From Octopus vulgaris (lineage: Eukaryota): 64,000 bases of DNA. This document shows positions 353 to 39,205 of the stretch, in pieces. Location of the stretch: positions 136,338,001 through 136,402,000 of the forward strand of contig OX597816.1 of assembly GCA_951406725.2 (NCBI GenBank). Reading direction: 5' to 3'. The position numbers and the translations under genes were made by a program. Within the stretch, counting starts at the first letter, position 1, and the number at the start of each line of letters is the position of its first letter. The notes below the pieces were generated by a model. It made no database searches and was not told the DNA's origin. It saw only the letters and a program-made list of their open reading frames with translations.

Positions 353-477
353 AAATAAATATATATATATATATATATTGATAAAACGGTAAGATAACAA
401 AAGAAAGAAAGAGACCTCAATATTATGTAAATAGAGGAAATTTATCTATACAATATGTTACATTACTCGGTAGTCAA

Positions 478-538
478 GATAAAACTCTGAGTTTCAGATG
501 CCGAAGTGGAAATCCACAACACCATCTCTTCGGTTATC
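478..538 (-). ncRNA. Hammerhead ribozyme-like motif (type I, minimal) in Penelope 3' region
   Basis: Reverse complement of 1318-1378. Confidence 0.65.
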
Positions 539-1317
539 TGGCTATTTGAAAACGTTATGAAAAAATACCGTTAAAAATGAAGGGAAATTACTCTGTTATA
601 ACTCTGCTTTGCCTGCGTACTTATACATCGCTCGCATTTTTCGTCATAAAAATTATATAAAAATACATAAAAAATATATAAAAATATATAAAAATATATA
701 AAATCTTCTTGGGACATAACACAGAAAGCATGTTCTATCCGTTTTCTTTAGGGGACCAAAAACGTAACAGAAATTTAGTCACATGTGGGCATGATCCGAA
801 AAGTTCTGTCCTTGTATTTAGACATGTGGTAGGGTCTAAGCTGCTTTTCCAGATAAGCCATCTCTCCATGTCGCATAAACCGCACCTTCCGCTGCCGTTA
901 GTATAGGGCTTACATCTGGCCAATGGAAGATTTTGGCCAGATGTAAGCCCTATACTAATGGCAGCGGAAGGTGCGGTTTATGCGACATGGAGAGATGGCT
1001 TATCTGGAAAAGCAGCTTAGACCCTACCACATGTCTAAATACAAGGACAGAACTTTTCGGATCATGCCCACATGTGACTAAATTTCTGTTACGTTTTTGG
1101 TCCCCTAAAGAAAACGGATAGAACATGCTTTCTGTGTTATGTCCCAAGAAGATTTTATATATTTTTATATATTTTTATATATTTTTTATGTATTTTTATA
1201 TAATTTTTATGACGAAAAATGCGAGCGATGTATAAGTACGCAGGCAAAGCAGAGTTATAACAGAGTAATTTCCCTTCATTTTTAACGGTATTTTTTCATA
1301 ACGTTTTCAAATAGCCA

Positions 1318-1378
1318 GATAACCGAAGAGATGGTGTTGTGGATTTCCACTTCGGCATCTGAAACTCAGAGTTTTATC
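1318..1378 (+). ncRNA. Hammerhead ribozyme-like motif (type I, minimal) in Penelope 3' region
   Basis: GATAA-CCGAAGA-GATG...CATC-T-GAAACTC-A-GAGT-T-TTATC: stem I GATAA/TTATC, core CYGANGA + GAAA, near-palindromic stem III. Confidence 0.65.
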
Positions 1379-1408
1379 TTGACTACCGAGTAATGTAACA
1401 TATTGTAT

Positions 1409-1468
<60 letters not shown>

Positions 1469-4060: not shown

Positions 4061-4090
4061 CACTATATATATATATATATCGACCTCACA

Positions 4091-4271
4091 TACTCAATAT
4101 GTGCTTTGCTTGTTCGCCGAGTTGCTGTGGTATAACTCTTTGAGGACGACTCCCTCATAACAGTGGGTACTAAAACACTTGAAAGTCGTAAACACCCAGT
4201 GTTATGAGAGATTTATCCCCAAAGCGTTATCCCACAGCGACTCGGCGAACAAGCAAAACACACGTTGAGTA
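4091..4271. repeat. Imperfect ~180 bp fold-back palindrome between two (TA)n tracts
   Basis: tactcaatatgtgctttgcttgttcgccgag...ctcataacagtgggt mirrored by acccagtgttatgag...ctcggcgaacaagcaaaacacacgttgagta. Confidence 0.8.
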
Positions 4272-4308
4272 CTGCTTACAACACAAGCGCCGCTTTTAAT
4301 TCGTAATC

Positions 4309-4378
<70 letters not shown>

Positions 4379-7330: not shown

Positions 7331-10300
7331 CACACACATGCATACACATCCATATTTATTATTTATTAAAATGGTTCGTGAGAGTCTGTCAAATGTTTTG
7401 CTCCTTTGCTTTTTTTCAGACAAATAATAATTTATTGAATGTATAATGATTAACTCATGAAGTTCTAGAAAGACATTATGGGGGTAAAATATTTGAAGAT
7501 AAGAACTTTTGTTTTAAATTTAAAGTGCAAAAGAATTATTAAACATTTTGTTGTTTGCCATGAATCAGTTTGATATAATTGTAATTCTCATCGTATAACA
7601 CCGTCCGGCATACTTTATTTGATGAGTGGCTTCTGGTTCATGACTAACCCTTCAAGTATAAAATTGCATGTGTGCTGGATTCTCTTGTTCATGAATGTAT
7701 CTTGCTGTTTATTCGATCAGCGACGCTACCTACACTTTGAACTATACTGTAAATAAGAAAATTACTATTTTTAAATCTCACAGCATGAGATATTCAGCAA
7801 CAGTACTTTTTAGTAAAGATTGTTTGCCAAAACAATTGTTTTTTAGGTTGATGCGTTGGTGTAATGGTAGCACAACTTGTTGCGAGGTGTGTGTTCGAGT
7901 CGCACGCGTACAGGAAAACCTACTTTTTTGTGGTGCACCTGAGCACTGTATACAACAATTTCATTATTATTATTATAAAATAACATGACAGTCCTGGCTT
8001 AGGACGACTGTTGTGGCTGTAATTTAGCCCCAGGAGACATTGTCTCCAGCTGGATATACGACACGATGTGTCCTTATATTTTCGAACAAGGGATTCTAGC
8101 ACCCCCACTCAGCTCAAAACAATATCTGTATATCGCGATTTCCGGATTATTTACTGTATATATACCGTAAATAGCTGAATATTTCGTAGATACTTGTACT
8201 CTTCAGAACCTTTTGCTTATCCTGTTTTCCTGGCATCCATTCCCCGCTCCCCCCCTTTTTTTTTCTTCGACCACTAGATTAACTTTGGACTTATGAAAAG
8301 AAAGCTTTATAATACTATGAACATATAAAACAAGGGCTAACTAAACGTCCGAATACAAGAGAAGTGTTTAGGACAAACTTATGAAAAATGCTTTGGACAG
8401 CCAAAGGGCTAATGTAATCATCAGGTAGAATCAGTTTGACGCATTGTATGGACTGTACTCGTAACTCAAACGACCAGTCACACACACGAAGCTGGTCGTT
8501 TGAATTACGAGTACCGTCCATCATCTAGTGTAGTGTAAAGTTGACCGATAGTTCCTCAGTAACTTCAACGAATCTTCTGGTAGAATCAGTGTGGCACACT
8601 GAGTGACTAGAGCGACGTCACGAATGACATATACCGGCCCGTTTGACTGGATTCGACACAGTTTTCGTTTATATAATTTCACCATAAGTCCTGGGTTGTT
8701 TCAGGCCCTTTCCCAAGGTGTTGTGCGCAGTGGTAGCGGAACTAGCATCTCGTGATTCCGAAGCGAGCTTTTTAGCCATCCAATTATGCCTGTACATGTG
8801 TGTGTGTGTACGCGCGCGCTCGTATGTATATCTCTATATCGACCAGACTATCGGCTGAGTGGACTGGTGCTGCATGAAATAAATTGTTTTGCTCATGAAC
8901 ACAGCGCACCGCCGGTTGGGGAATCGAAACCACGCTCTTGCGATCGTGAGTGCAATATCCTTACCACTAGACCACGCACACACACACATTGCAGACGTGG
9001 CCAGAGGAGGGCGGATAGATTCACAAGAATCCCTCCATTTCCAGTAGCGTCTTACTAATGAAAATTATTATCTAACATTTATTTTAATTTTGTGGGTTTC
9101 TTTTTATTTCACATATTTTTGACATTTTAATAACTAGGGAAACCCCCACCTTAAGTCCTGGCTTCACCCATATATACATATGCAAACGCATGTTGTTCAT
9201 CTATGCTTCTAAGTTCTTGCGATTTTACTTTGATATGTCAAGCGATTAATGTACACACCAATCTGATTAAAGAAGCGTCTTCCGGATTTAGGAAATCTGA
9301 GGAAATGTATAAATATATTGGTGACTCACATTTTGTTATTTGCTCGTTCTGTTCTGATTGTATCAGCAGCTTTGAAGGCGATAAGCGGCCAGAATCGTTA
9401 CTGATCCGGACAAAATGCTTAGCAGCATTTCTTCCGGCTTCTTGTGTTCTGAGTTCAAATGTCGCCAAGGTCAACTTTGCCTTTCATAAAATAAATATCA
9501 AGTGAGCACTAAGGGATGGGGTAATTGACTAGCCCCTCATCACAAAATTTCAAGCCTTGTACCTTAAATAAAAAAAGGAAAGTAAAAAGTGTCAGCAGCT
9601 TTGTTTTCAATTGCTCCAGTCAAGATAATTGACTTGTTTTTAACGAATCCTTAAATCACTTTTTCTGTCCTCGACAAAATACTTTCATTACACAACTCAT
9701 TTGACATAAGTTGGTCTGGATTCTATCTATAAGACATACGACCTACCCCTAACCTAACGTCAGACTTCTACTTTTCATATATTGCTTTAAAAAAAAAAAT
9801 CTTTTTGCGTATATATAGAATATTTTTTTTAATTACGTAAACAAATATGAATCAACAAGAGAGAGTGTGCACTAGACGCATGCAAACTGCGAGACTTTCT
9901 GAATGGCACGCGTAACAAAAAGCTACCTTGAACCTTTTTCGTAGAGCAGCCCGCGTGATGATGAGCCATGCCTCATGCAGGTCGCTTCTCGAGAAATGTT
10001 GTCCATGTCTGCTCTACACCTAAGCTGGATATGTTAGAAATAGCAATTAATACACCAATAGCAGCGTAAATGATGAAATGACACTAATGGGAATTTTGTC
10101 TGTATATGATTATTTCACATCTTTTTATTAAAACTTTTAAATACCATATTGGATTTAATATTATTTAAGTATTAGAACACAAGCAATGTAAGCGGAATGT
10201 AATGGAAACCGGATATATATGTACATCTATCGCCCGGTTTAACATCACTATCTGGTCCCTTGGAGTTCAATTTACTGCAAGCATTCAGTTCAGGTCTCCG

Positions 10301-14027: not shown

Positions 14028-14063
14028 ATATATATATATATGTGTGTATGTATGTATTTATAT

Positions 14064-14275
14064 GGATAGAAATGGTAAGACAACAAAAGAATGAAAGAGA
14101 CCTCGATATGTAAATAGAGGAATTCATCTGTAAATATATGTGACAATTATTTGGTAGCCATCAAAAATATTTTTTTGATGGCCTGATAACTGAAGAGATG
14201 CCAGTCCCCCATAACTGAAGGGTTTCTGCTCCGTCATCCAAAACTCAGATGTCACATAATTATATTTACAGATTT
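14064..14275. mobile_element. Degenerate mini fold-back of the hammerhead-bearing Penelope terminus
   Basis: Minus arm of the 21.5 kb family tail, central hairpin gccatcaaaaa-ta-tttttttgatggc, plus arm gataactgaagagatg...aaactcaga...tttacagat. Confidence 0.65.
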
Positions 14276-15791: not shown

Positions 15792-16515
15792 AAGCTGGGC
15801 TACACATATAAGCAGCAAAGTTGACATGGCCCGCAGAATGTGTTCCTGGATTCTCAGAACCTTCCAGTCGAGAGATTCCCACGCTATTATCCTTCTCTTC
15901 TCCACTTTTGCCCAACCCCACCTTGAATACTGCTGTCCACTGTGGTCTCCCTACACAAAACAAAATATTATGAGAATTGAAGCTCCCCAAAGGTCAATCA
16001 CAAAAAAGATAGATGGCATGTCAGACCTTGACTACTGGGGTAGACTAGAGAAGCTGAAATTGTATTCACTCCAACGACGCCGTGAACGCTACATTATCTG
16101 TATGATGTGGAAAATATTCCACCAGCACTGTCCGAATGATGTTGGCATCACCTTCAAAATGCATCCAAGGCTTGGACCACGTGCCATCCGTCCACAACAA
16201 AAATCTAAATCGCATCACATAACGACAATACGGCACAACTATTTCACCTCAATTGGACCTGCTCTCTTCAACATTACACCAGGGCATGTCAAAAAAGAAA
16301 CTGACCACACAAAATTCAAGAAGTCTTTGGACAAATTCCTTCAAACAGTACCGGACAAACCACCCACACCCGGATATGTCTCCGCAAACAATAACTCTCT
16401 GCTCGAATGGGCCTTGGTGCCCAAATCCTGAACTGAAAGACTTCACCAGGTGGTGCTATTAAGTTAGACATGGCCTGGGCCAATACTGGCCAAAACCTTT
16501 CTAAGTTATTCTAAG
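15792..16515 (+). mobile_element. 5'-truncated CR1-type LINE (second family), RT C-terminus + 3' UTR
   Basis: ORF 15826-16431 WILRTF...[12 protein letters not shown]...LKLYSLQRRRERY; ends in (ttctaagtta)x2; inserted within a (TA)/(TAGA) tract. Confidence 0.88.
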
Positions 16516-17389: not shown

Positions 17390-18689
17390 CATACATATAT
17401 ACATACATATATATATATATATATCTACTAATATATGTGGAAAATCGGTGTATGTTTGTTTGTGGTGTTGTTAGCTAACTCCTCCTACACTGTCTTACTG
17501 ATTTTGATGAAACTTGTCACATGAGTAGAACTCATGTCTGGAAGCCTCGTGACTTATTTAGATTGTTGAAAAAATTGTTACTATAGCTCTTAGAAGGGAC
17601 CTTTATATCTACCTTATATAATTAATTTTTTTAAACACCTAAGGGAAATAACCTATAGCATCTGTAAAATATTCTTTTTAAAATACTCAAGGGAAATAAT
17701 CCATTTCATTGTTTATGTTCGATTACTCTGAATATTGATTTTTTGTGTGCCTAATTTCTAATTCTTGCAGACAATATCACTTTATTTGACACGTCTGGAA
17801 ACATGTGACATCGATAATAGGGCTCCTCCAATGGATCCTTCTATCTACTACATATTACTAGTATTTTATTTAAACAACCCAAGGGAAATAGCCCATACCA
17901 CCTGCAGTTTTTAACGAAGCAATCAATATTTGATTCTCACTATCAGCCGACCTAATTCTGCATTTTGCTACTCAGTTTTGAACTGCTAAACATTATTGCA
18001 CTTCCTTAATTTGAATCTTAAACCTTAAAGACTTCATTCATACATTTCTATACATACTTTTTTGAATGCCCATTACTCCGATAATTCTGCATTTTTACAG
18101 TTACACTTTTTCCATGACAGTAGATAATTTTTTTATTCCACAACGTATTTGTAGTGGCTTCATGCAGGCATAGCTTCATGCAGACATATCCAGAGGATGT
18201 GAGATTCAAGAAGAAAATCAATGTTCAAACTACATATTTTGGTAGACATCACTTACATGAACCCGAGACATGTCTCTGCCAATGTCCACATCGATAAGCA
18301 TGCCCCATAAATGTGTCCACAAGGGGATTCTTAGAAAACAGAATTGAAAATAGCTCACTATCACAGAGTTGGCAGAACTCTATGCTCCCATCGCACAGGA
18401 ATGAAATGAGGAGAATCAACCAATCTAAATTAAACCGTTCATTATGGTCCTCCAGATACCAAACCAATTCACGAAACCCTATACTGCTGCGTCTATCACT
18501 ATCTCTAAATGTAAAGTAATGACTAGAAATTCTTCCAGATAACTGAGAACTACCCACACAAAAAAAAGACATTGGTACCTGAAGTAATTTTACACTGGTA
18601 TATAGAGGCTTTAGTCTTAGAATCACTAGACACAAATTTAATTCTGTTGGAACTGATCACAGAGACAATAACCCTGTCATCAATATTTG

Positions 18690-19330
18690 AGAAATTATTT
18701 GAATCTAAAAGTAATCCTTCATCTAGCTCAGGATTGGGATGGTTTGAAGATGATTTCTGGTCTAATGTGAGGGATGTGAAATTTCACCGTTCACCCCTAG
18801 GGAGTGGACATCTGAGGTGTCTTTGCTGTATCACCAGGGGAATTCATGGCATGGATAGTATACTGGTTCAATCAGATAAAGTGAGAAGCCTGTGCAAGCT
18901 TGCCAGGGGCTATTACTTAGAACTGCTTGGAAGAGGAATTCAAAAAAACTGTGGGGGTGCACTTGGGGGAGCCAACCTTGAGGCTGGGAGGGTTATGGAG
19001 AAGTGTAGCTTGCAGATGAGGACAGAGCCACTTGATCCTAAGCAACCTAGTTTTGTTTTAAAAGATCATAAACAAAGTTTTTTTGATAACCCATCCTTGC
19101 AACTTGTCTGTCCTTCTGGCTCTGGTATCGGTGTACTTGGTGAAAATGTTCTGGATGAATGTATTTCTACCTTGGTTGAGGAATTGGAGTTTAGTTTGTG
19201 GTCCAAGTCATTGACTGCTTTAGTTCTACTGCTGATAAGAGGAGCACTGAGTTTGTCCAGTTTGACATTTCTAGTTTCTATTCCTCCATTGGCCCAGTTG
19301 TGCTTGGTGGGGCACTCTCACTGGATCACT
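18690..19330 (+). pseudogene. Naiad-type Penelope RT N-terminal fragment, apparently A-to-G hypermutated
   Basis: Motifs FEDD..KF, V.SDK, LKDHK..F.DNP, QFDI..FY.SI...AL recognisable; one frameshift near 19200; many expected Lys/Asn/Tyr/Ile positions read Gly/Glu/Ser/Cys/Val. Confidence 0.85.
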
Positions 19331-19349
19331 GTGTATATATATATATCTA

Positions 19350-20943: not shown

Positions 20944-21061
20944 AACTTACTTGGAAAAGGAGGATGCATGGCGTTCAATCATATAATAATATAAATAATA
21001 TATAAATATATGCATATATACATACATATATGTACATACCTACATATATATGTATATATAC

Positions 21062-21425
21062 ATGCATATATGGGTACAGGACATCAAAAAAAATGTTAAA
21101 CACAATGAGAAACGAAAATATAAAAACAAAAACATAGAAACAACCTTTTTTCAAACAACGAAAAAAAACAGAGTACAAGACATACAACAAAAGGAATATT
21201 CCCCCATCTTCAGTTGTCCCTGTTTCATCAACTCCGTGTTTTACCTTTGAAATGTGTTTTAGATGAAACAGGGACAACTGAAGAAGGGGAATATTCCTTG
21301 TGTTGTATGTCTTGTACTCTGTTTTTTTCGTTGTTTGAAAAGAAATTTTGTTTCTATGTTTTTGTTTTCATTTCTCATTGTGTTCAACGTTTTTTTTTTA
21401 TGTCTCCTCTACCCATATATGAAAC

Positions 21426-21428
<3 letters not shown>
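21062..21428. repeat. ~370 bp fold-back palindrome in TA-rich DNA, probably a Penelope terminal remnant
   Basis: atatatgggtacaggacat...cttcagttgtccctgtttcatc mirrored by gatgaaacagggacaactgaag...cccatatat; centre ~21245. Confidence 0.8.
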
Positions 21429-21468
<40 letters not shown>

Positions 21469-21472
<4 letters not shown>

Positions 21473-21764
21473 ACAATTATTCGGTAGCCATGATAAAACT
21501 CCGAGTTTCAGATGCCAAGGTGGAAATCCATGCCGCCATCTCTTCAGCTATTCCGGCCATCGGAAAAATACTTTCATAGCATTTTTCCGATGGCCAAGCT
21601 AACTGAAGAGATGGCGGCGTGGATTTCCACCTTGGCATCTGAAACTCAGAGTTTTATCATGGCTACCAAATAATTGTCACATATTACATATACAGATAAA
21701 TTCCTCTATTTACATAATATCAAGGTCTCTTTCATTCTTTTGTTGTCTTACCATTTTTATCAAT
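21469..21764. mobile_element. Mini fold-back of a Penelope terminus (two inverted hammerhead motifs); mirrored at 30661-30970
   Basis: Centre ggccatcggaaaaat-actttcatagc-atttttccgatggcc; each arm has CTGAAGA-GATG...CATC-T-GAAACTCRGAGTT-TTATC. Confidence 0.85.
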
Positions 21765-23982
21765 ATAAATATATATTTCACTGATTAATGTTATATACCA
21801 ATATAGCAATGTTTTTCATAAGCATAACAAACATTTGAAGATACTATCACTTTTAAATATATTTGTATAAATAATTTTATAGTTCTCATAAATATCATCT
21901 GAAACTTCAAAATACTCCACATATCTATTTCTGTTCAAAATACTAAATAAAGCATTTCCTTTCTTTAAATAAATCTGAAGGCAAGTTGATTTACTGTACA
22001 CTTAACAGAACGATTGACTATATATATTTTATAGGTAATTTGCAGAAGTATTTAGCATTATCAGATATTATCTACAGTATAACTAAGTCATTTACATGCA
22101 GTATACGGTCATTTTGTCATTATCTAGAATCTAATTATACATTATCTTTTTCTTAAATGTCAGATATGAAGACGCAGAGGCTACAGCGTAATAAACAAAA
22201 CAGTTAGAGATTTATTGCTAGTTTAACACAAGAAAAATTATGACCTTTAGAATGACATTATTTTCAGCCACACAATGTAGAATGTTATAATGTTGACTAC
22301 AACTAAATTGTATGTAAGTATGTATGTATGGTTCTCTTCTATTTCTAATTACTTGATATCTTCCTGTATGGAAGGAGCAGGTTTCTAACAAAAATACAAA
22401 GCTCTATTGTCGGAATGTAGAGAACAAAAAAAATTTACATTTTCAACTTGAGAAAATCCTTGAAAATTGTTACAGACTGTATTTTTAACGTGCAAGTTAG
22501 CTGGTTAATTCCATCTTCTCAAAAACCTCCGCTTATGATTGCCATTAAAACATTTAATGACTGTATATATGTCAGAGTTAACTATATGATATTTTTTAAT
22601 ACATTAGTATAACAGAAAATTCATTTCAGAGCAGATTATTTCAACAAATGAATTGTCAAACAACATGGAAAGAAAAGTACTAAATAGTTCTTTGACCAAA
22701 AGGAAGATAAAGGTGGGTCAACTTACAAAATATGGCTTAGCTTAGACAGCGTCACCCAGTGTTATAACAGTTCAAACAGCTGCAATTTATGCTTATCTGA
22801 AAAATATGATATTATAAATCATCTACACCATTCATAAGTAATAATAATAAAAGAATTAAGTTTATATTGTAACATGGTTCAATATTCTTGCAATTCCTTT
22901 TCAAGACATTGGTGAAGGTACACATGTGACACATCATATTTTCTTTTGAATTTCCAACTACTGTAAAATTCTGTTAAATATTAGTGTGTCCTCATTCTTT
23001 GGCACTAGTGGGAAGTATCTACACATATTTTTCACGTGCGTATCACTATGCGCCTTCACTAGTCAGTTAAGGTGAGACAGTGTCATGTGACAACTTGCTG
23101 GGGCTGCCTGCTGGAGTCTATGCGGCAGGTATTTAAAGGGAGAAATTTGACAAGGCAAGAGGCCAGGGAATAGAGGAAAGAAGACGTGCACCCAACACCA
23201 GAGCTGAAGACACCTCCGAAAGTGGGGGCCCTGCCACATTAAAACGGTAGAGGAGTAGGGGCTGAAACCGGACATGGTTCCTCCTGATGATGTCTTGAGC
23301 TAACTGGATCCTATAAAAGAGCTGTTGTGGTAGCAGACCACGAAACACGGTTGTAATTCCCCCCAGGTAAATGTAAATGGAATGGTACTGGTGTGGCTGT
23401 GTGGCTAAGAAGTTCACTTCCCAAGTACATCGACTTTCTGGTTCAGACCTACTAAGTGGCACCATAGGCAGGTGTCTTTTATATAGCCTTGACTGACCAA
23501 AGCCTTGTGAGGAATTTGATAGATGGTAATTGAAAGAAGCTTATCATGTGTGTTTGTGTGTGTATATATATATAATTTAGAGAAAAACCTCTACTAAACA
23601 ATTCAATAATGAAAGATGTTATTCACATCATATAGAAAACATATACTATAAAAACCTAATTCTAAAAATCAATAACATACAAAAACAGAAATCCTTCGAT
23701 ATAAGTTATGTTTTTATTTTATATTGTTAAATGTTTTTCGATTATTTATAGTTAATACACATAATTTTCTATATTTATTTGATAATTAGTATAAGTTAAG
23801 ATAAAAGCATATTTATTCTATTATTATTTTTTATTATTATTATTTTAGACCTGATGAGTGACTATATTTTTAAATAGAATTAATTTTAGATCGAATTGAT
23901 TTTATTATTATTATATTATGATTCAAGTATTATCTGATAGTTGATGAATGATTTAGATATATTTCTCCATTTTCTCATTTTG

Positions 23983-24029
<47 letters not shown>

Positions 24030-24084
24030 ATGTATATATACATATATGTATATAAACATATATGTATAACAACATATATGTATA

Positions 24085-24392
24085 TACTGGCTTCTAGGCC
24101 GGTGGCACATAAAAAGCACCATCCGAACGTGGCCAATGCCAGCGCCGCCTTGACTGGCTTCTGTGCTGGTGGCACATTAAAAGCACTAACCAATCGTGGC
24201 TGCTGCCAGACTCCCCTGGCACCCACTACACTCACAGAGTGGTTGGCATTAGGAAGGGCATCCAGCTGTAGAAACACTGCCAGATCAGACTGGAGCCTGG
24301 TGCAGCCTCCTGGCTTCCCAGACCCTGGTTGAACCGTGCAACCCGTGCTAGCACGGAAAATGGACGTTAAACGATGATGATGATGATGATGA
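24085..24392 (+). mobile_element. RTE-type LINE 3' UTR with (GAT)n tail; mirrored at 28030-28340
   Basis: gccggtggcacataaaaagcacc...aggaagggcatccagctgtagaaac...ggacgttaaacgatgatgatg, shared with the RT-bearing copies at 45.7-46.6, 48.5-49.7 and 60.7-61.5 kb. Confidence 0.8.
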
Positions 24393-24544
24393 TATATGTT
24401 ATGTATATATATATATATATATATGCACATAGATGTATGTATATATATGCACATATATGTATGTATATATATGCACATATATGTATGTATATATATACAC
24501 ATATATGTATGTATATATATATGTATATATATATATATACATAT

Positions 24545-26063
24545 ATTGATAAAACGGTAAGATAACAAAAGAAAGAAAGAGACCTCAATATTATGTAAAT
24601 AGAGGAAATTTATCTATACAATATGTTACATTACTCGGTAGTCAAGATAAAACTCTGAGTTTCAGATGCCGAAGTGGAAATCCACAACACCATCTCTTCG
24701 GTTATCTGGCTATTTGAAAACGTTATGAAAAAACCGTTAAAAATGAAGGGAAATTACTCTGTTATAACTCTGCTTTGCCTGCGTACTTATACATCGCTCG
24801 CATTTTTCGTCATAAAAATTATATAAAAATACATAAAAATACATAAAAATATATAAAAATATATAAAATCTTCTTGGGACATAACACAGAAAGCATGTTC
24901 TATCCGTTTTCTTTAGGGGACCAAAAACGTAACAGAAATTTAGTCACATGTGGGCATGATCCGAAAAGTTCTGTCCTTGTATTTAGACATGTGGTAGGGT
25001 CTAAGCTGCTTTTCCAGATAAGCCATCTCTCCATGTCGCATAAACCGCACCTTCCGCTGCCGTTAGTATAGGGCTTACATCTGGCCAAAATCTTCCATTG
25101 TATGTTATAATCGACACCTTTATCTCTTAAAGACCAAATATGATTGGATAATTGTGTCGCTTTTCTTTTGTTCCAGTGCCTAAAGCTCAAAGTGTGGTTA
25201 TTGAACCTGGCCTTGAAATTACCCTCTGTCAGGCCCACGTATTTCTTCGTCAAAACGGTGTCTTTAGTGGTTATAGAGTTTACGGTAGCTTCATATATGA
25301 TGGTCTTGGACATGCAAGCTCCATTTAGCGGGCACAATTCTTTATTCCTGCATGAACAGCTGTTTTCTTCTTGTGTTTTTTGTATGTTATGATTGATTAT
25401 GTTTTTAAAATTGGTAGTTGAACTAAAACTAATTTTTAAATTGTGTCTATTGAAGAGTTTCCTATAAGCATGGTTAACTGGAAAATGTCTATCTATCAGT
25501 GCTAGGAAATATTTACCTATATTGAAGGCCACCTCGGGTGAGTAAGGGGCGTAAACCAGATGACCTTCCTATTTCTATTATTCCTTTTCCTTATTGTTGG
25601 GCTGGTGATAGGTGTATATTTTATTTTTTCGCTAAAACCACTATCTTTTAAAGCTTTATTATAAACTGGGGCAACGCTATTGAAGATGTCCTCATTAGAT
25701 GAGAGGCTAGAAATCCTCTTACTAATATTTTTAACTAAATTTTTGAATACTATAGGGGGATGGCATGAACCTACATTAATATAACTTAGTCTATCATTGG
25801 GCTTCCTATAAGGCTTATAAATATTATTATTAAGATCTAAGGAAACGTCTAAGAAATTGACAACCGTCAGGTTAGTGTCTATAGTTATACTAAGTCCGAA
25901 GTGTTTCATTAACTGGATAATATCCTTCCTAAAACGATCTTGTGCTGGTCCATTTGTATTAGCTGTTAAGGCGAGGGCATCATCTTTGTAGATGGCGAAA
26001 TGTACGTTAGGGAATGCCTTACTGAAGGTATCTAGGAGAAAGAGTCCAATTAGATCACAGATG
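24545..26063 (-). mobile_element. Naiad-type Penelope-like element, 5'-truncated (RT C-terminal half + GIY-YIG endonuclease + hammerhead terminus), left arm
   Basis: ICDLIGLFLL...IYKDDAL...VNFLDVSLDL...YRKPN; CSCRNKELCPLNGAC linker; IIYEA...KYVGLT GIY-YIG; CGLC knuckle; one -1 frameshift at ~25546 (WFTP[P]YS); hammerhead motif at 24646-24706. Confidence 0.93.
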
Positions 26064-27590
26064 ATGGGGCAGGCATCTGTGATCTAATTGGACTCTTTCT
26101 CCTAGATACCTTCAGTAAGGCATTCCCTAACGTACATTTCGCCATCTACAAAGATGATGCCCTCGCCTTAACAGCTAATACAAATGGACCAGCACAAGAT
26201 CGTTTTAGGAAGGATATTATCCAGTTAATGAAACACTTCGGACTTAGTATAACTATAGACACTAACCTGACGGTTGTCAATTTCTTAGACGTTTCCTTAG
26301 ATCTTAATAATAATATTTATAAGCCTTATAGGAAGCCCAATGATAGACTAAGTTATATTAATGTAGGTTCATGCCATCCCCCTATAGTATTCAAAAATTT
26401 AGTTAAAAATATTAGTAAGAGGATTTCTAGCCTCTCATCTAATGAGGACATCTTCAATAGCGTTGCCCCAGTTTATAATAAAGCTTTAAAAGATAGTGGT
26501 TTTAGCGAAAAATAAAATATACACCTATCACCAGCCCAACAATAAGGAAAAGGAATAATAGAAATAGGAAGGTCATCTGGTTTACGCCCCTTACTCACCC
26601 GAGGTGGCCTTCAATATAGGTAAATATTTCCTAGCACTGATAGATAGACATTTTCCAGTTAACCATGCTTATAGGAAACTCTTCAATAGACACAATTTAA
26701 AAATTAGTTTTAGTTCAACTACCAATTTTAAAAACATAATCAATCATAACATACAAAAAACACAAGAAGAAAACAGCTGTTCATGCAGGAATAAAGAATT
26801 GTGCCCGCTAAATGGAGCTTGCATGTCCAAGACCATCATATATGAAGCTACCGTAAACTCTATAACCACTAAAGACACCGTTTTGACGAAGAAATACGTG
26901 GGCCTGACAGAGGGTAATTTCAAGGCCAGGTTCAATAACCACACTTTGAGCTTTAGGCACTGGAACAAAAAAAAGCGACACAATTATCCAATCATATTTG
27001 GTCTTTAAGAGATAAAGGTGTCGATTATAACATACAATGGAAGATTTTGGCCAGATGTAAGCCCTATACTAACGGCAGCGGAAGGTGCGGTTTATGCGAC
27101 ATGGAGAGATGGCTTATCTGGAAAAGCAGCTTAGACCCTACCACATGTCTAAATACAAGGACAGAACTTTTCGGATCATGCCCACATGTGACTAAATTTC
27201 TGTTACGTTTTTGGTCCCCTAAAGAAAACGGATAGAACATGCTTTCTGTGTTATGTCCCAAGAAGATTTTATATATTTTTATATATTTTTATATATTTTT
27301 ATGTATTTTTATATAATTTTTATGACGAAAAATGCGAGCGATGTATAAGTACGCAGGCAAAGCAGAGTTATAACAGAGTAATTTCCCTTCATTTTTAACG
27401 GTTTTTTCATAACGTTTTCAAATAGCCAGATAACCGAAGAGATGGTGTTGTGGATTTCCACTTCGGCATCTGAAACTCAGAGTTTTATCTTGACTACCGA
27501 GTAATGTAACATATTGTATAGATAAATTTCCTCTATTTACATAATATTGAGGTCTCTTTCTTTCTTTTGTTATCTTACCGTTTTATCAAT
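26061..27590 (+). mobile_element. Naiad-type Penelope-like element, right arm
   Basis: In frame from 26063: DGAGICDLIGLFLLDTFSKAFPNVHFAIYKDDAL...; same frameshift as the left arm plus two extra 1-nt losses in A-runs (~26510, ~26970). Confidence 0.93.
27429..27489 (+). ncRNA. Hammerhead ribozyme-like motif in Naiad 3' terminus
   Basis: Identical to 1318-1378; predicted cleavage after GUU at ~27484. Confidence 0.65.
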
Positions 27591-28394
27591 ATATGTATAT
27601 ATATATATATACATATATGTATACATATATGTATGTATATATACATATATGTATACATATATGTATGTATATATGCATATATGTATACATATATGTTTGT
27701 ATATATACATATTTGTATACATATATCATCATCATTGTTTAGCGTCCGCTTTCCATGCTAGCATGGGTTGGACATATGTATATATATATATGTATATATA
27801 CATATATATGTGTATATATATGTATTCAATCCAAACACTAACAAGCAAGAGAAAAGAACAATGCGAGGGCATGGAATAAGTACAGTGTTATTGGATGCTT
27901 AGGAAAGGAAAGAAAAGAAAGAGGATTTCATGTTTCGAGCAGAGCTCTTCATCAGAAATATAGAAAAAGTCCATATATATATGTGTGTGTATATGTACAT
28001 ATACACATATATATATGTATATATACATATATCATCATCATCATCATCATCGTTTAACGTCCATTTTCCGTGCTAGCACGGGTTGCACGGTTCAACCAGG
28101 GTCTGGGAAGCCAGGAGGCTGCACCAGGCTCCAGTCTGATCTGGCAGTGTTTCTACAGCTGGATGCCCTTCCTAATGCCAACCACTCTGTGAGTGTAGTG
28201 GGTGCCAGGGGAGTCTGGCAGCAGCCACGATTGGTTAGTGCTTTTAATGTGCCACCAGCACAGAAGCCAGTCAAGGCGGCGCTGGCATTGGCCACGTTCG
28301 GATGGTGCTTTTTATGTGCCACCGGCCTAGAAGCCAGTATATACATATATGTTGTTATACATATATGTTTATATACATATATGTATATATACAT

Positions 28395-28433
<39 letters not shown>

Positions 28434-30870
28434 ATATACAAAATGAGAAAATGGAGAAATATATCTAAATCATTCATCAACTATCAGATAATACGGAATC
28501 ATAATATAATAATAATAAAATCAATTCGATCTAAAATTAATTCTATTTAAAAATATAGTCACTCATCAGGTCTAAAATAATAATAATAAAAAATAATAAT
28601 AGAATAAATATGCTTATCTTAACTTATACTAATTATCAAATAAATATAGAAAATTATGTGTATTAACTATAAATAATCGAAAAACATTTAACAATATTTC
28701 TTAAAATAAAAACATAACTTATCTTATCGAAGGATTTCTGTTTTTGTATGTTATTGATTTTTAGAATTAGGTTTTTATAGTATATGTTTTCTATATGATG
28801 TGAATAACATCTTTCATTATTGAATTGTTTAGTAGAGGTTTTTCTCTAAATTATATATATATACACACACAAACACACATGATAAGCTTCTTTCAATTAC
28901 CATCTATCAAATTCCTCACAAGGCTTTGGTCAGTCAAGGCTATATAAAAGACACCTGCCTATGGTGCCACTTAGTAGGTCTGAACCAGAAAGTCGATGTA
29001 CTTGGGAAGTGAACTTCTTAGCCACACAGCCACACCAGTACCATTCCATTTACATTTACCTGGGGGGAATTACAACCGTGTTTCGTGGTCTGCTACCACA
29101 ACAGCTCTTTTATAGGATCCAGTTAGCTCAAGACATCATCAGGAGGAACCATGTCCGGTTTCAGCCCCTACTCCTCTACCGTTTTAATGTGGCAGGGCCC
29201 CCACTTTCGGAGGTGTCTTCAGCTCTGGTGTTGGGTGCACGTCTTCTTTCCTCTATTCCCTGGCCTCTTGCCTTGTCAAATTTCTCCTTTAAATACCTGC
29301 CGCATAGACTCCAGCAGGCAGCCCCAGCAAGTTGTCACATGACACTGTCTCACCTTAACTGACTAGTGAAGGCGCATAGTGATACGCACGTGAAAAATAT
29401 GTGTAGATACTTCCCACTAGTGCCAAAGAATGAGGACACACTAATATTTAACAGAATTTTACAGTAGTTGGAAATTCAAAAGAAAATATGATGTGTCACA
29501 TGTGTACCTTCACCAATGTCTTGAAAAGGAATTGCAAGAATATTGAACCATGTTACAATATAAACTTAATTCTTTTATTATTATTACTTATGAATGGTGT
29601 AGATGATTTATAATATCATATTTTTCAGATAAGCATAAATTGCAGCTGTTTGAACTGTTATAACACTGGGTGACGCTGTCTAAGCTAAGCCATATTTTGT
29701 AAGTTGACCCACCTTTATCTTCCTTTTGGTCAAAGAACTATTTAGTACTTTTCTTTCCATGTTGTTTGACAATTCATTTGTTGAAATAATCTGCTCTGAA
29801 ATGAATTTTCTGTTATACTAATGTATTAAAAAATATCATATAGTTAACTCTGACATATATACAGTCATTAAATGTTTTAATGGCAATCATAAGCGGAGGT
29901 TTTTGAGAAGATGGAATTAACCAGCTAACTTGCACGTTAAAAATACAGTCTGTAACAATTTTCAAGGATTTTCTCAAGTTGAAAATGTAAATTTTTTTTG
30001 TTCTCTACATTCCGACAATAGAGCTTTGTATTTTTGTTAGAAACCTGCTCCTTCCATACAGGAAGATATCAAGTAATTAGAAATAGAAGAGAACCATACA
30101 TACATACTTACATACAATTTAGTTGTAGTCAACATTATAACATTCTACATTGTGTGGCTGAAAATAATGTCATTCTAAAGGTCATAATTTTTCTTGTGTT
30201 AAACTAGCAATAAATCTCTAACTGTTTTGTTTATTACGCTGTAGCCTCTGCGTCTTCATATCTGACATTTAAGAAAAAGATAATGTATAATTAGATTCTA
30301 GATAATGACAAAATGACCGTATACTGCATGTAAATGACTTAGTTATACTGTAGATAATATCTGATAATGCTAAATACTTCTGCAAATTACCTATAAAATA
30401 TATATAGTCAATCGTTCTGTTAAGTGTACAGTAAATCAACTTGCCTTCAGATTTATTTAAAGAAAGGAAATGCTTTATTTAGTATTTTGAACAGAAATAG
30501 ATATGTGGAGTATTTTGAAGTTTCAGATGATATTTATGAGAACTATAAAATTATTTATACAAATATATTTAAAAGTGATAGTATCTTCAAATGTTTGTTA
30601 TGCTTATGAAAAACATTGCTATATTGGTATATAACATTAATCAGTGAAATATATATTTATATTGATAAAAATGGTAAGACAACAAAAGAATGAAAGAGAC
30701 CTTGATATTATGTAAATAGAGGAATTTATCTGTATATGTAATATGTGACAATTATTTGGTAGCCATGATAAAACTCTGAGTTTCAGATGCCAAGGTGGAA
30801 ATCCACGCCGCCATCTCTTCAGTTAGCTGGCCATCGGAAAAATGCTATGAAAGTATTTTTCCGATGGCCG

Positions 30871-30931
30871 GATAGCTGAAGAGATGGCGGCATGGATTTC
30901 CACCTTGGCATCTGAAACTCGGAGTTTTATC
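30871..30931 (+). ncRNA. Hammerhead ribozyme-like motif with canonical CUGAAGA box
   Basis: GATAG-CTGAAGA-GATG...CATC-T-GAAACTC-G-GAGT-T-TTATC; a sister motif lies at 21598-21658. Confidence 0.68.
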
Positions 30932-30966
30932 ATGGCTACCGAATAATTGTCACATATTACATTTAC

Positions 30967-31021
<55 letters not shown>

Positions 31022-31029
31022 CACTCACA

Positions 31030-32437
31030 CAAGGCGGGTACTGAAAAGATCCTGGTTTTGGGTAAAAGAAAATTCAGGCGGATCAGTTATTTATGAGTTT
31101 ATCAAACATAGTTGGAAAATTGGGAGAATGGCTTCATGACTTTCTGAAGAATAGAAGTCAGGTGGTAGCAGCCAATGGGGCCACTTCCATTAACACACAA
31201 ATAGTGAGCGGTGTTCCGCAGGGCACTGTTTTGGGACCACTACTGTTCATAATGGCCCTCTCAGACATGCCCTCAGCCACGCAGAGAGCCACGATCACAA
31301 GTTATGCAGATGATACAAAAGTTTCACAGGCAATACAGAACCCTGAAGACACTAAGCACCTGCAATGTGAGCTGGACGAAATATACAAGTGGGCTGAAAA
31401 GAATAGCATGCAGTTCAATGCTGAAAAGTTTCAAGCTTTATACTATCAGCATGCAAAACTAAATGCAATACCCAATGAATACACTGGACCCGGAGGAATA
31501 GCAATCCCAGAGGCACAATCAGTGCGTGACCTGGGTATTTACATGAGTGATGACGCAACCTTTCGTGTTCATGTTGCTAAATTGGCAATGAAATGTAGAC
31601 GACTGGCCGGATGGATTCTCAGAACCTTTAGAACAAGAGAACAAGAAACCATGATGGTCCTCTGGAGGACACTTGTCCTAAGCCACTTTGACTATTGCTC
31701 TCAGTTATGGTCACCATCCAGTGTCAAGTTGATCACAGAGCTCGAGGCGATCCAGCGTAGCTACACGAAGAAGATAGCCTCTATGCAGAATGTAAGCTAC
31801 TGGGAAAGACTCAAGAGATTAAAACTATATTCCTTGGAGCGTAGGCGGGAAAGATATGCCATAATATACATCTGGAAGATCCTGGAGGGACATGTCCCAA
31901 ACTTTGGCATCGAGAGTTACACAAATGCCAGAACTGGGCGCCACTGCGTGGTGCCTAGGACTCCAAATTTGCCATCTAGATGTAGGACAAGATACTGTGA
32001 TAGCCTGGGCTTCCGTGGCACACAGCTCTTCAATATCCTCCCGAAGAACCTGAGAGACCTGCATGGGGTGGATGCAGATGTCTTTAAAATGGAACTGGAT
32101 CTCTTCCTGTCAGGTGTCCCAGATGAACCAACTTCACGGCAGGAGGTGCAGATGAGGGCAGCTGCATCGAACTCTCTCATGCACCAAATGGCAGTTGCTA
32201 AAAAGCTTTTGTGAAGTAAAACCAAGTTGCAACACCAAATGGCGGTGCCCCAGCATGGCCACAGCTCATGAGCTGAAACTAGAATCAATCAATCAATCAA
32301 TTCTTCTCTCAGATTCACACACTTATTGCAGCAGTTCTTCAGTTTTTCTAAGCCCTATAAAAGAACTCGGAAGTTTAGACCTCCAACCAGGCCTTTTGTA
32401 ATATCCTTAAAGCCAGAAACTTTTCAATACTACCTTG
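31030..32437 (+). mobile_element. Tc1/mariner-like MITE split by a CR1 insertion (pieces ~31030-31100 and ~32300-32437); uninterrupted relative at ~34124-34315
   Basis: tactgaaaagatcctgg... and ...ccagaaacttttcaatac ends; the two pieces join into the 34124 sequence (ggatcagttaattatgattttactcaacatattcccctctcagattcacac). Confidence 0.7.
31100..32300 (+). mobile_element. Young 5'-truncated CR1-type LINE, RT domain open (ORF 31093-32214)
   Basis: SGVPQGTVLGPLLF, YADD, MQFNAEKF, VRDLGI, HFDYCSQLWSP, LYSLERRRER; (AATC)n tail; the ORF's ATG derives from the host MITE. Confidence 0.93.
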
Positions 32438-32560: not shown

Positions 32561-35157
32561 CACACATACATTCATACATACATACATACACACACACACA
32601 CATACATACACACATGCACACATATACACACAATACTTTTTATCCTTTCAGGTTTGGTTGGGCCTCCAACCAGGCCTTTCACAAAACCCTTAAAGCCAGG
32701 ACGTTTTCAGCACCCACTTGTGTGCGTGTGTGTGTGTACACATGTATTCTCTTTCCCTGTCTCCCCACCCAGAAAACCCAGGCCCCTTCCACAAACTTAT
32801 AGTTACCCCACCACCCTTGTTTTATCAATCTCTCACTCCCCCTCCCATATTCTTGCAGCCTTTAACCCCCACCCTTAGTCTCCCTGTCACTGAATCTCTC
32901 CATCCTTCTCCAATCCACTGTATTAATCTGGTGCTGTAAGTAATGGAATTTGAGCCCATTACTACAAAGCTTTTCATATTACCAATTTTGTACTACCACT
33001 CACTACTCCCTTTTCTCTGAGCTACTCACTGTTGACATCTGTCCATCATTCCTAACATCCCCCCCCACTCGTATTTTCGATCACTTACCCCCACCTTTGT
33101 TCACCATTAACTACATTCACTTCCTATATACATCTGACCACCTCCACTCTATATTTATATCCATCTTTCACTCTTATCTAACACTCTTGCCACCTAACCC
33201 ACCTCTGCTGATTCTCCTACCTCCATGCTCCCTTGTAGTCGTCTTATACATATCTCCTTGCCTTCATATTCTGGTACCATGTCACCCCCACATTTATCTC
33301 CCTTTGTGGCACATCTCAAGCCATGCCATTCACCCATGTTAAAATGTGAAGTATCCACGAATTTCTTCTACTGTAAATTTACCTCTACTTTTATCCTATA
33401 TTAACATCTGAACACCTTGTGTAAGCAACTACTGTATCTCCTATTCCTCCTCTCTGTTGGGGATCTTAAGTCATGCAAGTTACAAGGCAGCCTTGCTAGT
33501 ACTGGTATCATAGGAAAAGCACCTAGTACACTCTGTAAGGTGGTTGGTGTTGAGAAGAGTTTCTTATTGTAGAAATCTTGCCAAAACTAAGACTGGAGAG
33601 AGACATGGTCCTAGGATCTATTGGATCCTGTTTTACTGTCCAGAATGGAAAACAGATGTAAAAATGAATATAATACTCTTTTTACTCTTTTACTTGTTTC
33701 AGTCATTTGACTGCGGCCATGCTGGAGCACCGCCTTTAGTCGAGCAAATCGACTCTGGGACTTAGTCTTTGTAAGCCCAGTACTTATTCTATCGGTCTCT
33801 TTTGCCGAACCGCTAAGTGACGGGGACGTAAACACACCAGCATCGGTTGTCAAGCAATGCTAGGGGGACAAACACAGACACACAAACACACACACACACA
33901 CACATATATATATACATATATATGACAGGCTTCTTTCAGTTTCTGTCTACCAAATCCACTCACAAGGCATTGGTCGGCCCGGGGCTATAGCAGAAGACAC
34001 TTGCCCAAGATGCCACGCAGTGGGACTGAACCCAGAACCATGTGGTTGGTTAGCAAGCTACTTACCACACAACCACTCATATATATATATATACACACAC
34101 ACACACATACACACACACACACATACGATGGGCGCTGAAAAGTTCCTAGCTTGAGTAAAAGAAAATACTGGAGGATCAGTTAATTATGATTTTACTCAAC
34201 ATATTCCCCTCTCAGATTCACACTCTTATTGCAGCAGTCCTTCGGTTTTTCTAAGCCCTGTAAAAGAAATAGGAAGGTTGGGCCTCTAACCAGGCCTTTC
34301 ACAATTCCCTTAAAGTGTATGTGTTTGTAAATTTGCAGTCTGTGTCCCTCCACCCAAAACAAATCATAACAGGTTGTAATAAGTAAGCTGTAAAGGTGAA
34401 AGACGAAAAAAGGTAAGGTAAGAAAGGAGTGTGACAGAGAAAAAAAAAAAGAGGAAGCAAATGGGGAAGGGTTGGAGGGCAATAAAAAGAATGGATGAGA
34501 GAGACAGACAGACTGAGTAAGTGAAAAAATTAGTGGGTGGTCATCAGATTACATTTACATCTCATTTACATATGTGTACTCTACTATATATATCTATCAA
34601 AAGATTACACACCACATGCAAACATAGATAAGATTCTATAAACATGTGAACATATACTGTCTGTGCACACTCATCTATCAATAGATTGTCCACAATACAC
34701 ACTTATACAGACAAAATATTTATGTACATTAGAGGCAGACATGGTAAGAAGCTTGCTTCCCAACCATATGGTTCACAGTTTAACCACACTGCTTGGCACC
34801 TTGGGCAAGTGTCTTCTACAATAGCCTTGGGACAACCGAAGCCTTGTGAGTGGATTGGATTTGGTAGATGAAAACTGAAAGAAGCCCAACGTATATATAT
34901 ATATATAACAATTGCAGTGTGGAAGGTGTTTATAAGCCATTTAAGAAACACACAAAACTGTTAGATTCACTTCAACATTTAAATTTAATTTGTCAAAATA
35001 TTTCCGTCGCTTTGAGACCGCAACCTGTTCACTGACAAAGCGTTGTGCTGCACAAAGGTCGCGGTCTTCCATGCTGCAATTGTTTTCATTCTAGCACATG
35101 ATCTCAGATCAAGTCACTCGTTTTGCAAGTACATCTTCGTAATATATATATATATAT

Positions 35158-35570
35158 AAGAAAAATAAGAAAATAGAGATAAATGAATTAATAATTATAT
35201 TTATTCATTTCAACAATAGACATAATCTCTGACAATTGTTTGATTCAAACTTTAGAAATTAATTAAAATAATTAAATCATTAGAAAGTTGAATCTCGTCG
35301 GAGGTAGAAAAACAATATACCATTACATTATATTTCTATGTGTTAAGTGTACGGAGCATACCACTGCTCCGTACACTTAACACTTAAAAAATATAAAAAT
35401 GTAATAGTATATCTTTTTCTACTTCCAACGAGGTTCAACTTTATAATGATTTAATTATTTTGATTAATTTCTAAAGTTTGAATTGAAACAACTGTCAGAG
35501 ATTATGCCTATTTTTGTAATTAATAAATATAATTATTAATTGATTTATCTCTATTTTCTTAATTTTCTTA
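35158..35570. mobile_element. Fold-back palindrome of another hammerhead-bearing (Penelope-type) terminus
   Basis: Perfect core gtgttaagtgtacggagca-taccac-tgctccgtacacttaacac; the arm consensus gives CCGACGA-GATTCAA...TTGAATC-GAAAC-AATT-GTC; TA flanks. Confidence 0.8.
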
Positions 35571-35711
35571 AATAGATATCAACCTTGGTTTATTTAATTA
35601 CTTTATTTTTTAATATTAAATCTAATATTCAAAATAAATAATAGGTAATAAACCTGTAAATTCATTGGATATTATTATCCCTTAACGAGGTATTTAACCT
35701 TTAATTGAACT

Positions 35712-36504: not shown

Positions 36505-37152
36505 CACACACATCATCACAGGTAAATCATAATACACCTTCAACACTCATATTAGTTCAGATTATTTTGTATATAATTGAGAATATTTATAATTTTTTAT
36601 GTATTTTATGTCACCAACGTATACAAAGAAAATTTTATTGCTGTTTTCCACAATACCTGGAATTTCACATGCATGTGTATATGTGTGTGTGTGTGAATGT
36701 TGAATGTGTGTATGTGTGTGTGTGAATGTTGAATGTGTGTGTGTGTGCACGCACACACATGATGTTTTTTGGCAGGTGTTACTAGTTGTAATTAGACTTT
36801 TGAAACAATTAGTCTACTTTAACTCTGTTGAACTTTGAACTTTTTCTTTTCTTTTGACATACATCTAAAAAAATACGTATGCACATACCAAAGAGACACT
36901 CAAATAAACATAAAGACATACTCATTCACAACAAAGCTTGTCATTATCCTTATTAGCTTCTTTCTTAGACATTCTTATTTAACTCTGTTACATCAGCCAT
37001 GCTGAGTTCTTTACTTTATGATCTAATGAGTAACAAGCTTGCTGTTCTGTATCTTGATGAAATGAAGTCTCCCCAATTTTCCTAAAACACTCAATTACTT
37101 TTATAAACAAACTGCAATGATTTGATAGGCAGTGCTGAGTTTTACAAATTTG

Positions 37153-37453
37153 TAAATAATAACAATAATATTTTATAAGCTTACAGCTTATAAACAATCA
37201 CCATGCATTGACCAAGGTAAATAGTCTAATATTTGGGCATATAAGCCCTTGATGGAAAAAAGTGGGTTTATCAAACACACGGGACTCACACCCACACCTC
37301 TGTTTTCAAGTGTGCTACGATTACACCAGAAAACCTACTTTTTTTTTTTCATTGAGGGCTTATATGCCCCAATATTAGACTAGTGTCTTTAGTTAATACA
37401 CAGTGATTGCTTATAAGCTTTAAGCTTATAAAACTTAATTGTTTATTGTTTAC
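37153..37453. repeat. Degenerate fold-back palindrome
   Basis: ttataagcttacagcttataa...tagtctaatatttgggcatataagccct mirrored by agggcttatatgccccaatattagacta...ttataagctttaagcttataa. Confidence 0.75.
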
Positions 37454-39022: not shown

Positions 39023-39078
39023 AAACAATTTTACATTAATCTGATGGGTTACTCTATATTTTTGTAAAGTATAAATTT

Positions 39079-39205
39079 ATTATTCTTATACAAGAATGTT
39101 GTCGACTGTGATTTCAAAGTTTCGACCAGCTAAGCCATTGTCCAACAATGGTGGCTGGCTGACACTTTGAAGTCACTGTTAACAACATTCATGTATGAAA
39201 ATAAT
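39079..39205. repeat. Small fold-back palindrome
   Basis: ttattcttatacaagaatgttg...gccattgt-cca-acaatgg...caacattcatgtatgaaaataa. Confidence 0.7.

Follow-up and report, generated by a model that had tools for sequence, protein, structure and literature searches.

Head-to-head insertions of a Penelope-like element (PLE), whose two arms are mirror copies joined across a short loop, occur as four events in the window, a stretch of 64,000 nucleotides of Octopus vulgaris DNA that is AT-rich animal sequence with many microsatellites and retroelement fragments. The palindromes are real, and both their kind and the outline of their explanation are already in print. The outer ends of the arms are more informative than the size of the loop. 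A tentative reading, which falls a little short of an even chance, is that the insertions entered (TA)n tracts through priming from both target ends, combined with fold-back at the head of the element.

Identity of the palindrome-forming element

The family that forms the palindromes is assigned to the Hydra clade of PLEs on the basis of its motifs and a by-eye comparison with the nearest named family; the motifs in its ORF agree with its earlier designation as Penelope-like. The young family is termed PLE1 here, and an older subfamily, 83% identical to it over the last 190 nt, is termed PLE2. Only one substitution separates the PLE1 copies at the two young junctions described below (J1 and J2). 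PLE1 carries its domains in one ORF broken by frameshifts, the reverse transcriptase (RT) first and, at the C-terminal end, the GIY-YIG endonuclease second. A Naiad PLE, which has an N-terminal endonuclease, was rejected because the endonuclease comes after the RT here. The right arm of the J2 insertion (26064-27589) can be read across three frameshifts through an RT core with YKDD, a thumb, a CxCx5C linker, GIY-YIG and CxxC..E..N..CxH, and the left arm (24546-26063) has one frameshift only. The linker lies at 25358-25332, the GIY-YIG core (25301-25233) has no Cys and no CCHH motif, and CxxC and CxH surround the conserved E and N at 25049-24948.

Section 11 of PMC8557442 lists as features of the Hydra clade the CxCX5C linker, the lack of CCHH, CxxC and CxH flanking E and N, the N-terminal motifs RWK and DKT, a hammerhead and insertion into (TA)n. 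TA-rich microsatellite flanks all four events in the window. The N-terminal region is absent from the window copies, and in the 35 homologues of at least 600 amino acids (of 184) RW[KR] was present in 29 and DK[TS] in all 35. The hammerhead-like motif was located by our own pattern scan for stems I and II and GAAA:

1317..1380, plus strand: type I hammerhead-like motif with the variant core CCGAAGA, in the 3' UTR; mirror copy near 533, also at 27434 and 24701

All four PLE1 motifs (1323, 533, 24701 and 27434) have the core CCGAAGA and not CTGAAGA, the core found in PLE2. Folding of the region gave stem II with unremarkable z-scores, and an Rfam scan gave no hammerhead among the 150 of 154 matches listed, which were hairpin or microsatellite look-alikes below the gathering score. 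A minus-strand fragment at 27824-27972, single-copy in the window, shows a hammerhead-like core by eye that the pattern scan did not catch; it is possibly the 3' end of another PLE.

No significant family for the element proteins was returned by Pfam (five proteins), NCBIfam (three proteins) or a PDB sequence search. PF01541 was present on 23% of the members of a look-alike cluster in the Atlas, which we treat as a lead, and the clusters lean to Mollusca on very few records. The best protein relatives are 58-64% identical over most of the query. A similarity search within the window found no full-length copy extending 5' past J2.

The nearest named family is Hydra-1_Obim from Octopus bimaculoides, which, as described in PMC8557442, shares the order RT then GIY-YIG, the CxCx5C linker, the Cys-free GIY-YIG core, CxxC/CxH, a putative hammerhead-like motif in the 3' UTR and (TA)n targets. 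About 49 of 82 residues (~60%) are identical over an RT stretch, counted by eye, but the 3' UTR differs and the two are separate families. PLE1 also departs from the Hydra-clade elements described there in its core, CCGAAGA rather than CTGAAGA, and in its tail of 65 nt rather than 30-40 bp. Five k-mers from the window were missing from the supplement of that paper, whose FASTA line breaks could mask a match.

Two young junctions

The first insertion, J1, is a 5'-truncated PLE1:

378..923, minus strand: J1 mirror arm, with the end of the GIY-YIG coding region, 3' UTR, hammerhead-like motif and 65-nt 3' tail; abuts (TA)n
921..935, plus strand: J1 junction, with CAA at 921-923, a 9-nt loop at 924-932 and TTG at 933-935; the loop belongs to the plus arm and reads as sense sequence of the element
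921..1413, plus strand: J1 loop-bearing arm, 12 nt longer at its 5' end, ending at a tail-less site and followed by (TA)n; one CpG-type C>T at 959

The self-complementary arms, 440-923 and 933-1416, are separated by 9 nt. Alignment of the plus arm with the longer copy starts at 921, which corresponds to 27035, and the preceding base differs. Because this match starts at 921, the plus arm exceeds the mirror arm by 12 nt on its 5' side, and CAA/TTG is a true 3-nt microhomology; the loop, extension and closure that the earlier note had read from this junction were thus borne out exactly by the arm alignment and the longer copy. A microhomology of at least 3 nt would arise by chance at 2.1% of random position and loop pairs in the element.

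The J1 arms differ by one substitution in 481 columns, and no A-to-G difference was found between them. A TA variant is present in both J1 arms (559 and 1286) and in neither J2 arm (24727 and 27399), which agrees with its description as private to the first insertion, except that it is not polarised and could equally be read as a deletion in the other copy. A second copy-specific variant, one extra T, follows the same pattern (664 and 1176 in J1 against 24840 and 27290 in J2), and both indel differences between the J1 and J2 copies (two of two) are therefore common to the two arms of each insertion.

The second insertion, J2, is longer:

24518..24545, no strand assigned: self-complementary stretch of microsatellite, 28 nt long, that recurs at 27590-27617; equally readable as a target-site duplication or as an inverted copy of the target
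24546..26063, minus strand: J2 mirror arm of PLE1, with the RT core from the D-G motif, thumb, CxCx5C, GIY-YIG, CxxC..E..N..CxH, 3' UTR and tail; one frameshift
26061..26076, plus strand: J2 junction, 10-nt loop at 26064-26073, microhomology 1-3 nt
26064..27589, plus strand: J2 loop-bearing arm of PLE1, with its tail at 27525-27589 and the ORF stop at 27233-27235; the shared frameshift and two private 1-nt deletions

The 10-nt loop was confirmed, but ATG/CAT, which had been taken to close it, are merely the last three pairs of the arms and not a demonstrated microhomology. The window holds no longer copy at this point, and the extent of pairing was bounded from protein conservation. The junction coincides with the codon that precedes the conserved D in the S/A-[YF]-D-G motif; of the 143 homologues that were usable (184 in all), 121 have this D, and the residue before it is Y in 51 and F in 43 of the 143, and Y in Hydra-1_Obim. 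A 3-nt microhomology would need TAT (or CAT/AAT), and TAT accounts for seven of the ten Tyr codons in the two ORF pieces counted. A microhomology of about 1-3 nt is thus plausible on these grounds.

A C4 run stands in both J2 arms at a point where the reading frame calls for C5 (26581 and 25540), as expected from the frameshift that had been reported as common to the 26-kb arms, and the right arm has private 1-nt deletions at 26508 and 26971. Arm differences amount to one substitution and two gaps. The shared frameshift is weaker evidence than the earlier note assumed, since arm differences that are almost all indels suggest residual long-read error and no third copy covers the site.

Two older junctions and a nested palindrome

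Two PLE2 junctions were found, one of which lies within a larger inverted duplication:

21470..21763, no strand assigned: J3 palindrome of PLE2, with a tail-less mirror arm at 21470-21569, a loop at 21570-21580 and a tail-bearing loop arm at 21570-21763; loop 11 nt by strict pairing, 5 nt when folded
21470..24398, plus strand: left arm of a 2.93-kb inverted duplication; it includes J3, a SINE-like repeat and AT-rich flanking sequence, and agrees with the other arm in 2919 of 2937 columns (one substitution, eight gap events)
28025..30971, minus strand: right arm of that 2.93-kb duplication, with the second J3 copy at its end (loop 30844-30854, tail-less arm end 30971); 21470-24398 is mirrored at 28025-30960
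14056..14167, minus strand: J4 left arm, PLE2, tail-bearing, with the hammerhead region deleted between short direct repeats
14157..14182, plus strand: J4 junction, its breakpoint shared with J3; the stem measures 11 bp and the loop, at 14168-14171, 4 nt
14169..14273, plus strand: tail-less right arm of J4; its end lies no more than 1 nt from the site of 1413 and 30971

The 11-nt loop claimed for J3 holds under strict pairing, and it shrinks to 5 nt when one mismatch is allowed, DNA folding of both strands adding two more pairs beyond that mismatch. The J3 arms differ at seven of 117 columns (6%). J3 is present twice, at 21570-21580 and 30844-30854, because it sits inside the larger inverted duplication. 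J4, which the earlier note had missed, was picked up by a sensitive similarity search; it is older and has deletions in both arms, so its loop may have changed. J3 had been counted as an independent junction, which does not hold, as J4 has the same breakpoint at another locus. Judged from the sequences, J3 and J4 are likely to be either one inherited junction from a palindromic ancestor or products of a breakpoint hot spot.

At four of the seven positions where the J3 arms differ (30855-30971 against 30720-30843), G stands against A on the plus strand, a possible sign of CpG decay or a trace of A-to-I editing, with unclear polarity. The editing reading is not favoured: CpG decay explains some of the differences, J1 shows none, and the polarity is unclear.

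The stretch 21470-30971 forms a 9.5-kb nested palindrome in which the J2 insertion lies off-centre between the 2.93-kb arms, with junctions in TA-rich repeats. Its right arm keeps ~14 nt more at the outer end, so the left arm may be the derived copy. A single simple hairpin was rejected for the whole structure, as the flanks of J2 differ (~120 nt present on the left only, ~400 nt on the right only) and a microsatellite unit has one and the same orientation on either side. Within the duplicated arm, short stretches with splice-like boundaries at 22000-22750 (mirrored near 29700-30400) may be host exons; 18 short open frames were listed for the duplicated arm. The SINE-like repeats in the window resemble octopus SINEs. 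The 2.93-kb outer duplication may be a real local inverted duplication or an assembly artefact.

Loop size and microhomology

The loops measure 9 nt (J1), 10 nt (J2), 11 or 5 nt (J3) and 4 nt (J4). Short loops are real, and a fixed size is not supported. The constant loop geometry proposed in the earlier note gives way at J4 and, depending on pairing, at J3. For J1 and J2, under a uniform prior, two loops would differ by at most 1 nt with P 0.22 (loops of 3-15 nt) or 0.08 (3-40 nt). Three loops within 2 nt, J4 not counted, would have P 0.10 or 0.013 over the same ranges. Microhomology of ~3 bp likewise falls short of a general rule, being demonstrated at one of the four junctions (J1).

The J1 and J2 truncation points lie 555 and 1526 nt from the 3' end, each within 12-13 nt of its partner. 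Fold-back priming is supported as a reading of these sequences, since it would fit short loops at two unrelated positions together with the J1 microhomology. The 3-bp priming hairpins have free energies of +1.1 and +1.3 kcal/mol. For half of all 3' ends a 3-bp partner exists somewhere across a loop of 3-40 nt, and fold-back sites are therefore not rare. Fold-back hairpins described in yeast have loops from 3 to 44 nt, including 8 and 10, and stems of 4-15 bp (PMC7467729). A loop of 9-10 nt is thus not diagnostic of a PLE enzyme, because host polymerases in yeast make such loops without an RT.

Outer ends of the arms

The eight arms of the four events, with J3 counted once, end at two sites 65 nt apart, five at the end of the tail and three at the internal site (1413, 30971 and 14273). 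The duplicated J3 mirror arm at 21470 stops ~14 nt short of the internal site. The tail is found on the mirror arm only at J1, on the loop arm only at J3 and on both arms at J2; at J4, loop arm and mirror arm are not assignable. The internal site ranks with the closest imitations of (TA)n in the 3' end (8 of 10, a value reached at one or two further places in each subfamily), and can for that reason be read as an annealing point or as an RT start.

If one cDNA folded back and was copied in a single pass, the mirror arm should never extend beyond the 3' end of the loop arm. J2 and J3 conform to this relation; J1, where the mirror arm has 65 nt more, breaks it. One-pass snap-back cannot make J1, because the supposed copy is longer than its first strand by the whole 65-nt tail, and the single event of cDNA self-priming that had been proposed for each palindrome is therefore not the whole story.

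A possible route of insertion and its rivals

The reading that we favour, priming from both target ends with fold-back at the head, builds on what is seen directly in the window, namely the palindromes, the loop sequences, the J1 microhomology, the shared variants and the two discrete outer ends; it draws on four events, with microhomology at one. By analogy with another PLE (PMC11167929), the GIY-YIG nuclease would cut both strands of AT-rich DNA, and RT priming on element RNA would begin at one or the other of two 3' start sites, which lie 65 nt apart here. The first cDNA would stop early, and its 3' end would pair over 1-3 nt with itself across a short loop, a step paralleled by the cDNA snap-back described for R2 (PMC11371274). 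A polymerase would hold this hairpin, as it must, because a 3-bp hairpin is unstable alone. Extension by the RT or a host polymerase would give a sense copy of the cDNA, and a second cDNA, primed at the opposite end of the target, or microhomology with (TA)n would capture this copy, so that either arm could carry the tail; at J1, where the tail is on the mirror arm and not on the loop arm, a second antisense template would be needed. The in vitro support for dual priming comes from a Poseidon-clade element with a tail of 30-40 nt, whereas the element here is of the Hydra clade with a tail of 65 nt.

The J1 tail is explained equally well if an antisense transcript forms a fold-back from which the RT synthesises sense DNA and the resulting hairpin is copied into the target, both arms then coming from one tail-containing molecule. 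This proposal was made from the same head-to-head geometry in PMC3846280, and it needs no second cDNA to account for the tail pattern of J1, the short loops or the variants that the arms share; we consider it unlikely, as the PLE protein assayed in PMC11167929 used sense RNA for target-primed synthesis. One-pass snap-back of a single cDNA copied to its end can be kept if the J1 plus-arm tail was lost later by deletion between the TA-like sequence and the (TA)n flank. J2, with both arms tailed and 28-29 nt of inverted identity beyond the tails, and J3, with its shorter mirror arm, fit this history, which is nevertheless rather unlikely in that the deletion must have hit the same site as two other insertions, and this in a copy with one substitution in 481 columns. 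Fold-back could also be dispensed with: two cDNAs from opposite target ends would be made on one broken RNA, reach almost the same point and be joined by microhomology end joining, the loop being their length difference. The same 3 nt would then pair between strands, and discrete ends, shared variants and a loop on either arm would all be covered; the old PLE at 18267-19335 even has non-overlapping head-to-head pieces such as two primers would give, although these pieces, in a decayed element, might stem from a rearrangement after insertion. One RT would, however, have to displace the cDNA of the other over 0.5-1.5 kb, and both would have to stop within 12-13 nt, which makes this account distinctly unlikely.

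Palindromes are fixed at the 5' ends of pLTRs described in PMC3846280, and the junctions here could have been inherited in a similar manner, a palindromic master being transcribed across both arms and retrotransposed as a unit from the internal site of the sense arm. The breakpoint that J3 and J4 have in common at two loci speaks for inheritance, which is probably true of these two. For J1 it is quite improbable, as this insertion would need a 480-bp perfect RNA duplex as template; RNA editing of a long perfect duplex would be expected in animals, yet the J1 arms lack A-to-G changes. Very improbable, finally, is that fold-back chimeric reads or mis-assembly made the palindromes. Nanopores do read inverted duplicates badly (PMC7229812), and the arm differences in the 21.5-31 kb region are almost all indels, like residual long-read error (one substitution and two gaps at J2, one substitution and eight gaps in the outer arms). 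Against this stand the unlike flanks on the two sides of J1, J2 and J4, the 65 nt of the J1 mirror arm that the other arm lacks, the CpG-type transition between the J1 arms, the 6% divergence of the J3 arms and loops that consist of element sequence. The artefact reading is open only for the outer 2.93-kb duplication.

Other palindromes and retroelements in the window

An old PLE at 18267-19335 consists of an endonuclease piece on the minus strand and an N-terminal RT piece on the plus strand, head-to-head and not mirrored, and ends in a microsatellite; it resembles twin priming. In LINE-1 twin priming, two primers from two target ends give a head-to-head junction with microhomology and non-overlapping arms. 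J1-J4 differ in having arms that are mirror copies, and only the old element at 18.3-19.3 kb looks non-overlapping. Decayed PLE fragments on the minus strand at 39889-42519 present a thumb/endonuclease piece and then an RT piece, as in a partial tandem. An old palindrome at 4080-4310, between two (TA)n tracts, has ~30 nt extra on one arm and a centre of 12-25 nt, a PLE-like layout.

Old fold-back palindromes also occur at 21022-21467, 35148-35579, 37152-37453, 39076-39208, 43345-43496 and 8448-8521, a high density for 64 kb. The palindromes centred near 4181, 8484, 21245, 35363, 37302, 39142 and 43420 have central loops of ~3-32 nt, depending on the method. They showed no similarity to PLE1 or PLE2 by blastn within the window, and unrelated palindromes were excluded from the loop count. 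The segments at 31066-32214, 1-350, 15793-16431 and 45644-46321 we take to be RT fragments of non-LTR retrotransposons, CR1- and RTE-like; 1-350 is 89% identical to 31934-32283.

Relation to earlier work

Self-priming had already been drawn from head-to-head PLE palindromes in 2013 (PMC3846280), so the inference made from these junctions was not new. The inverted pLTRs described there have a tail on one end and a 15-bp overlap at one inverted junction, and PMC8557442 describes an inverted 5'-truncated copy and a one-sided tail as typical of PLEs. The insertions in the window resemble these copies in their head-to-head arrangement, palindromic junction and, in part, a tail on one arm only. They differ in that self-priming in PMC3846280 is placed on an antisense template, that loops and microhomology are not tabulated there, and that no full-length ORF copy lies beside the palindromes here.

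The purified PLE protein of PMC11167929, Poseidon PAc, is reported to cleave and extend both target strands, with RT starting at two sites that match genomic tail boundaries. Two discrete 3' ends and AT-rich targets are common to that system and ours, and extension of both strands would fit a two-ended structure; Poseidon PAc belongs to another clade, and the experiments described there reconstituted neither second-strand synthesis nor inverted junctions. Snap-back of cDNA before the 5' junction forms is described for R2 insertions (PMC11371274), and a host-polymerase fold-back route for yeast DNA repair (PMC11724301). In both, as in the yeast fold-back inversions of PMC7467729, DNA synthesis starts from a 3' end that has looped back onto its own strand, with an inverted copy as the product, but in yeast a host polymerase does so without an RT.

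PMC4209133 describes hammerhead motifs 100-700 bp apart on opposite strands. PMC13282606 reports recently active Penelope families in O. vulgaris, with no passage on palindromes found in its text, and term searches of PMC9977147 and a 2026 retrozyme preprint gave nothing further. No tabulation of loop length or microhomology at PLE junctions, and no PLE twin priming, was found in the literature searched, most subscription papers, including the PLE structure reviews of 2005-2006, lying outside the search.

Significance

The origin of the tandem and inverted structures of PLEs is stated as an open question in PMC8557442 and PMC11167929. Loop size alone tells little about it; comparison of the loop arm with the tail arm in a large set of young copies tells dual priming, antisense self-priming and one-pass snap-back apart. 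PLE1, with a single substitution between its J1 and J2 copies, is young enough for such scoring. Long perfect palindromes also matter for assembly quality, and are possible sources of local rearrangement and of double-stranded RNA.

A wider proposal, which we hold to be doubtful, is that PLEs integrate without a conventional second-strand step: both target ends would prime cDNA at the two start sites, and short-loop snap-back on one cDNA would make the bridging sense strand. Were this true, head-to-head palindromes would be a direct record of such integration, and the 9.5-kb nested palindrome could have arisen when that reaction continued into host DNA and left 2.9 kb duplicated in inverted orientation.
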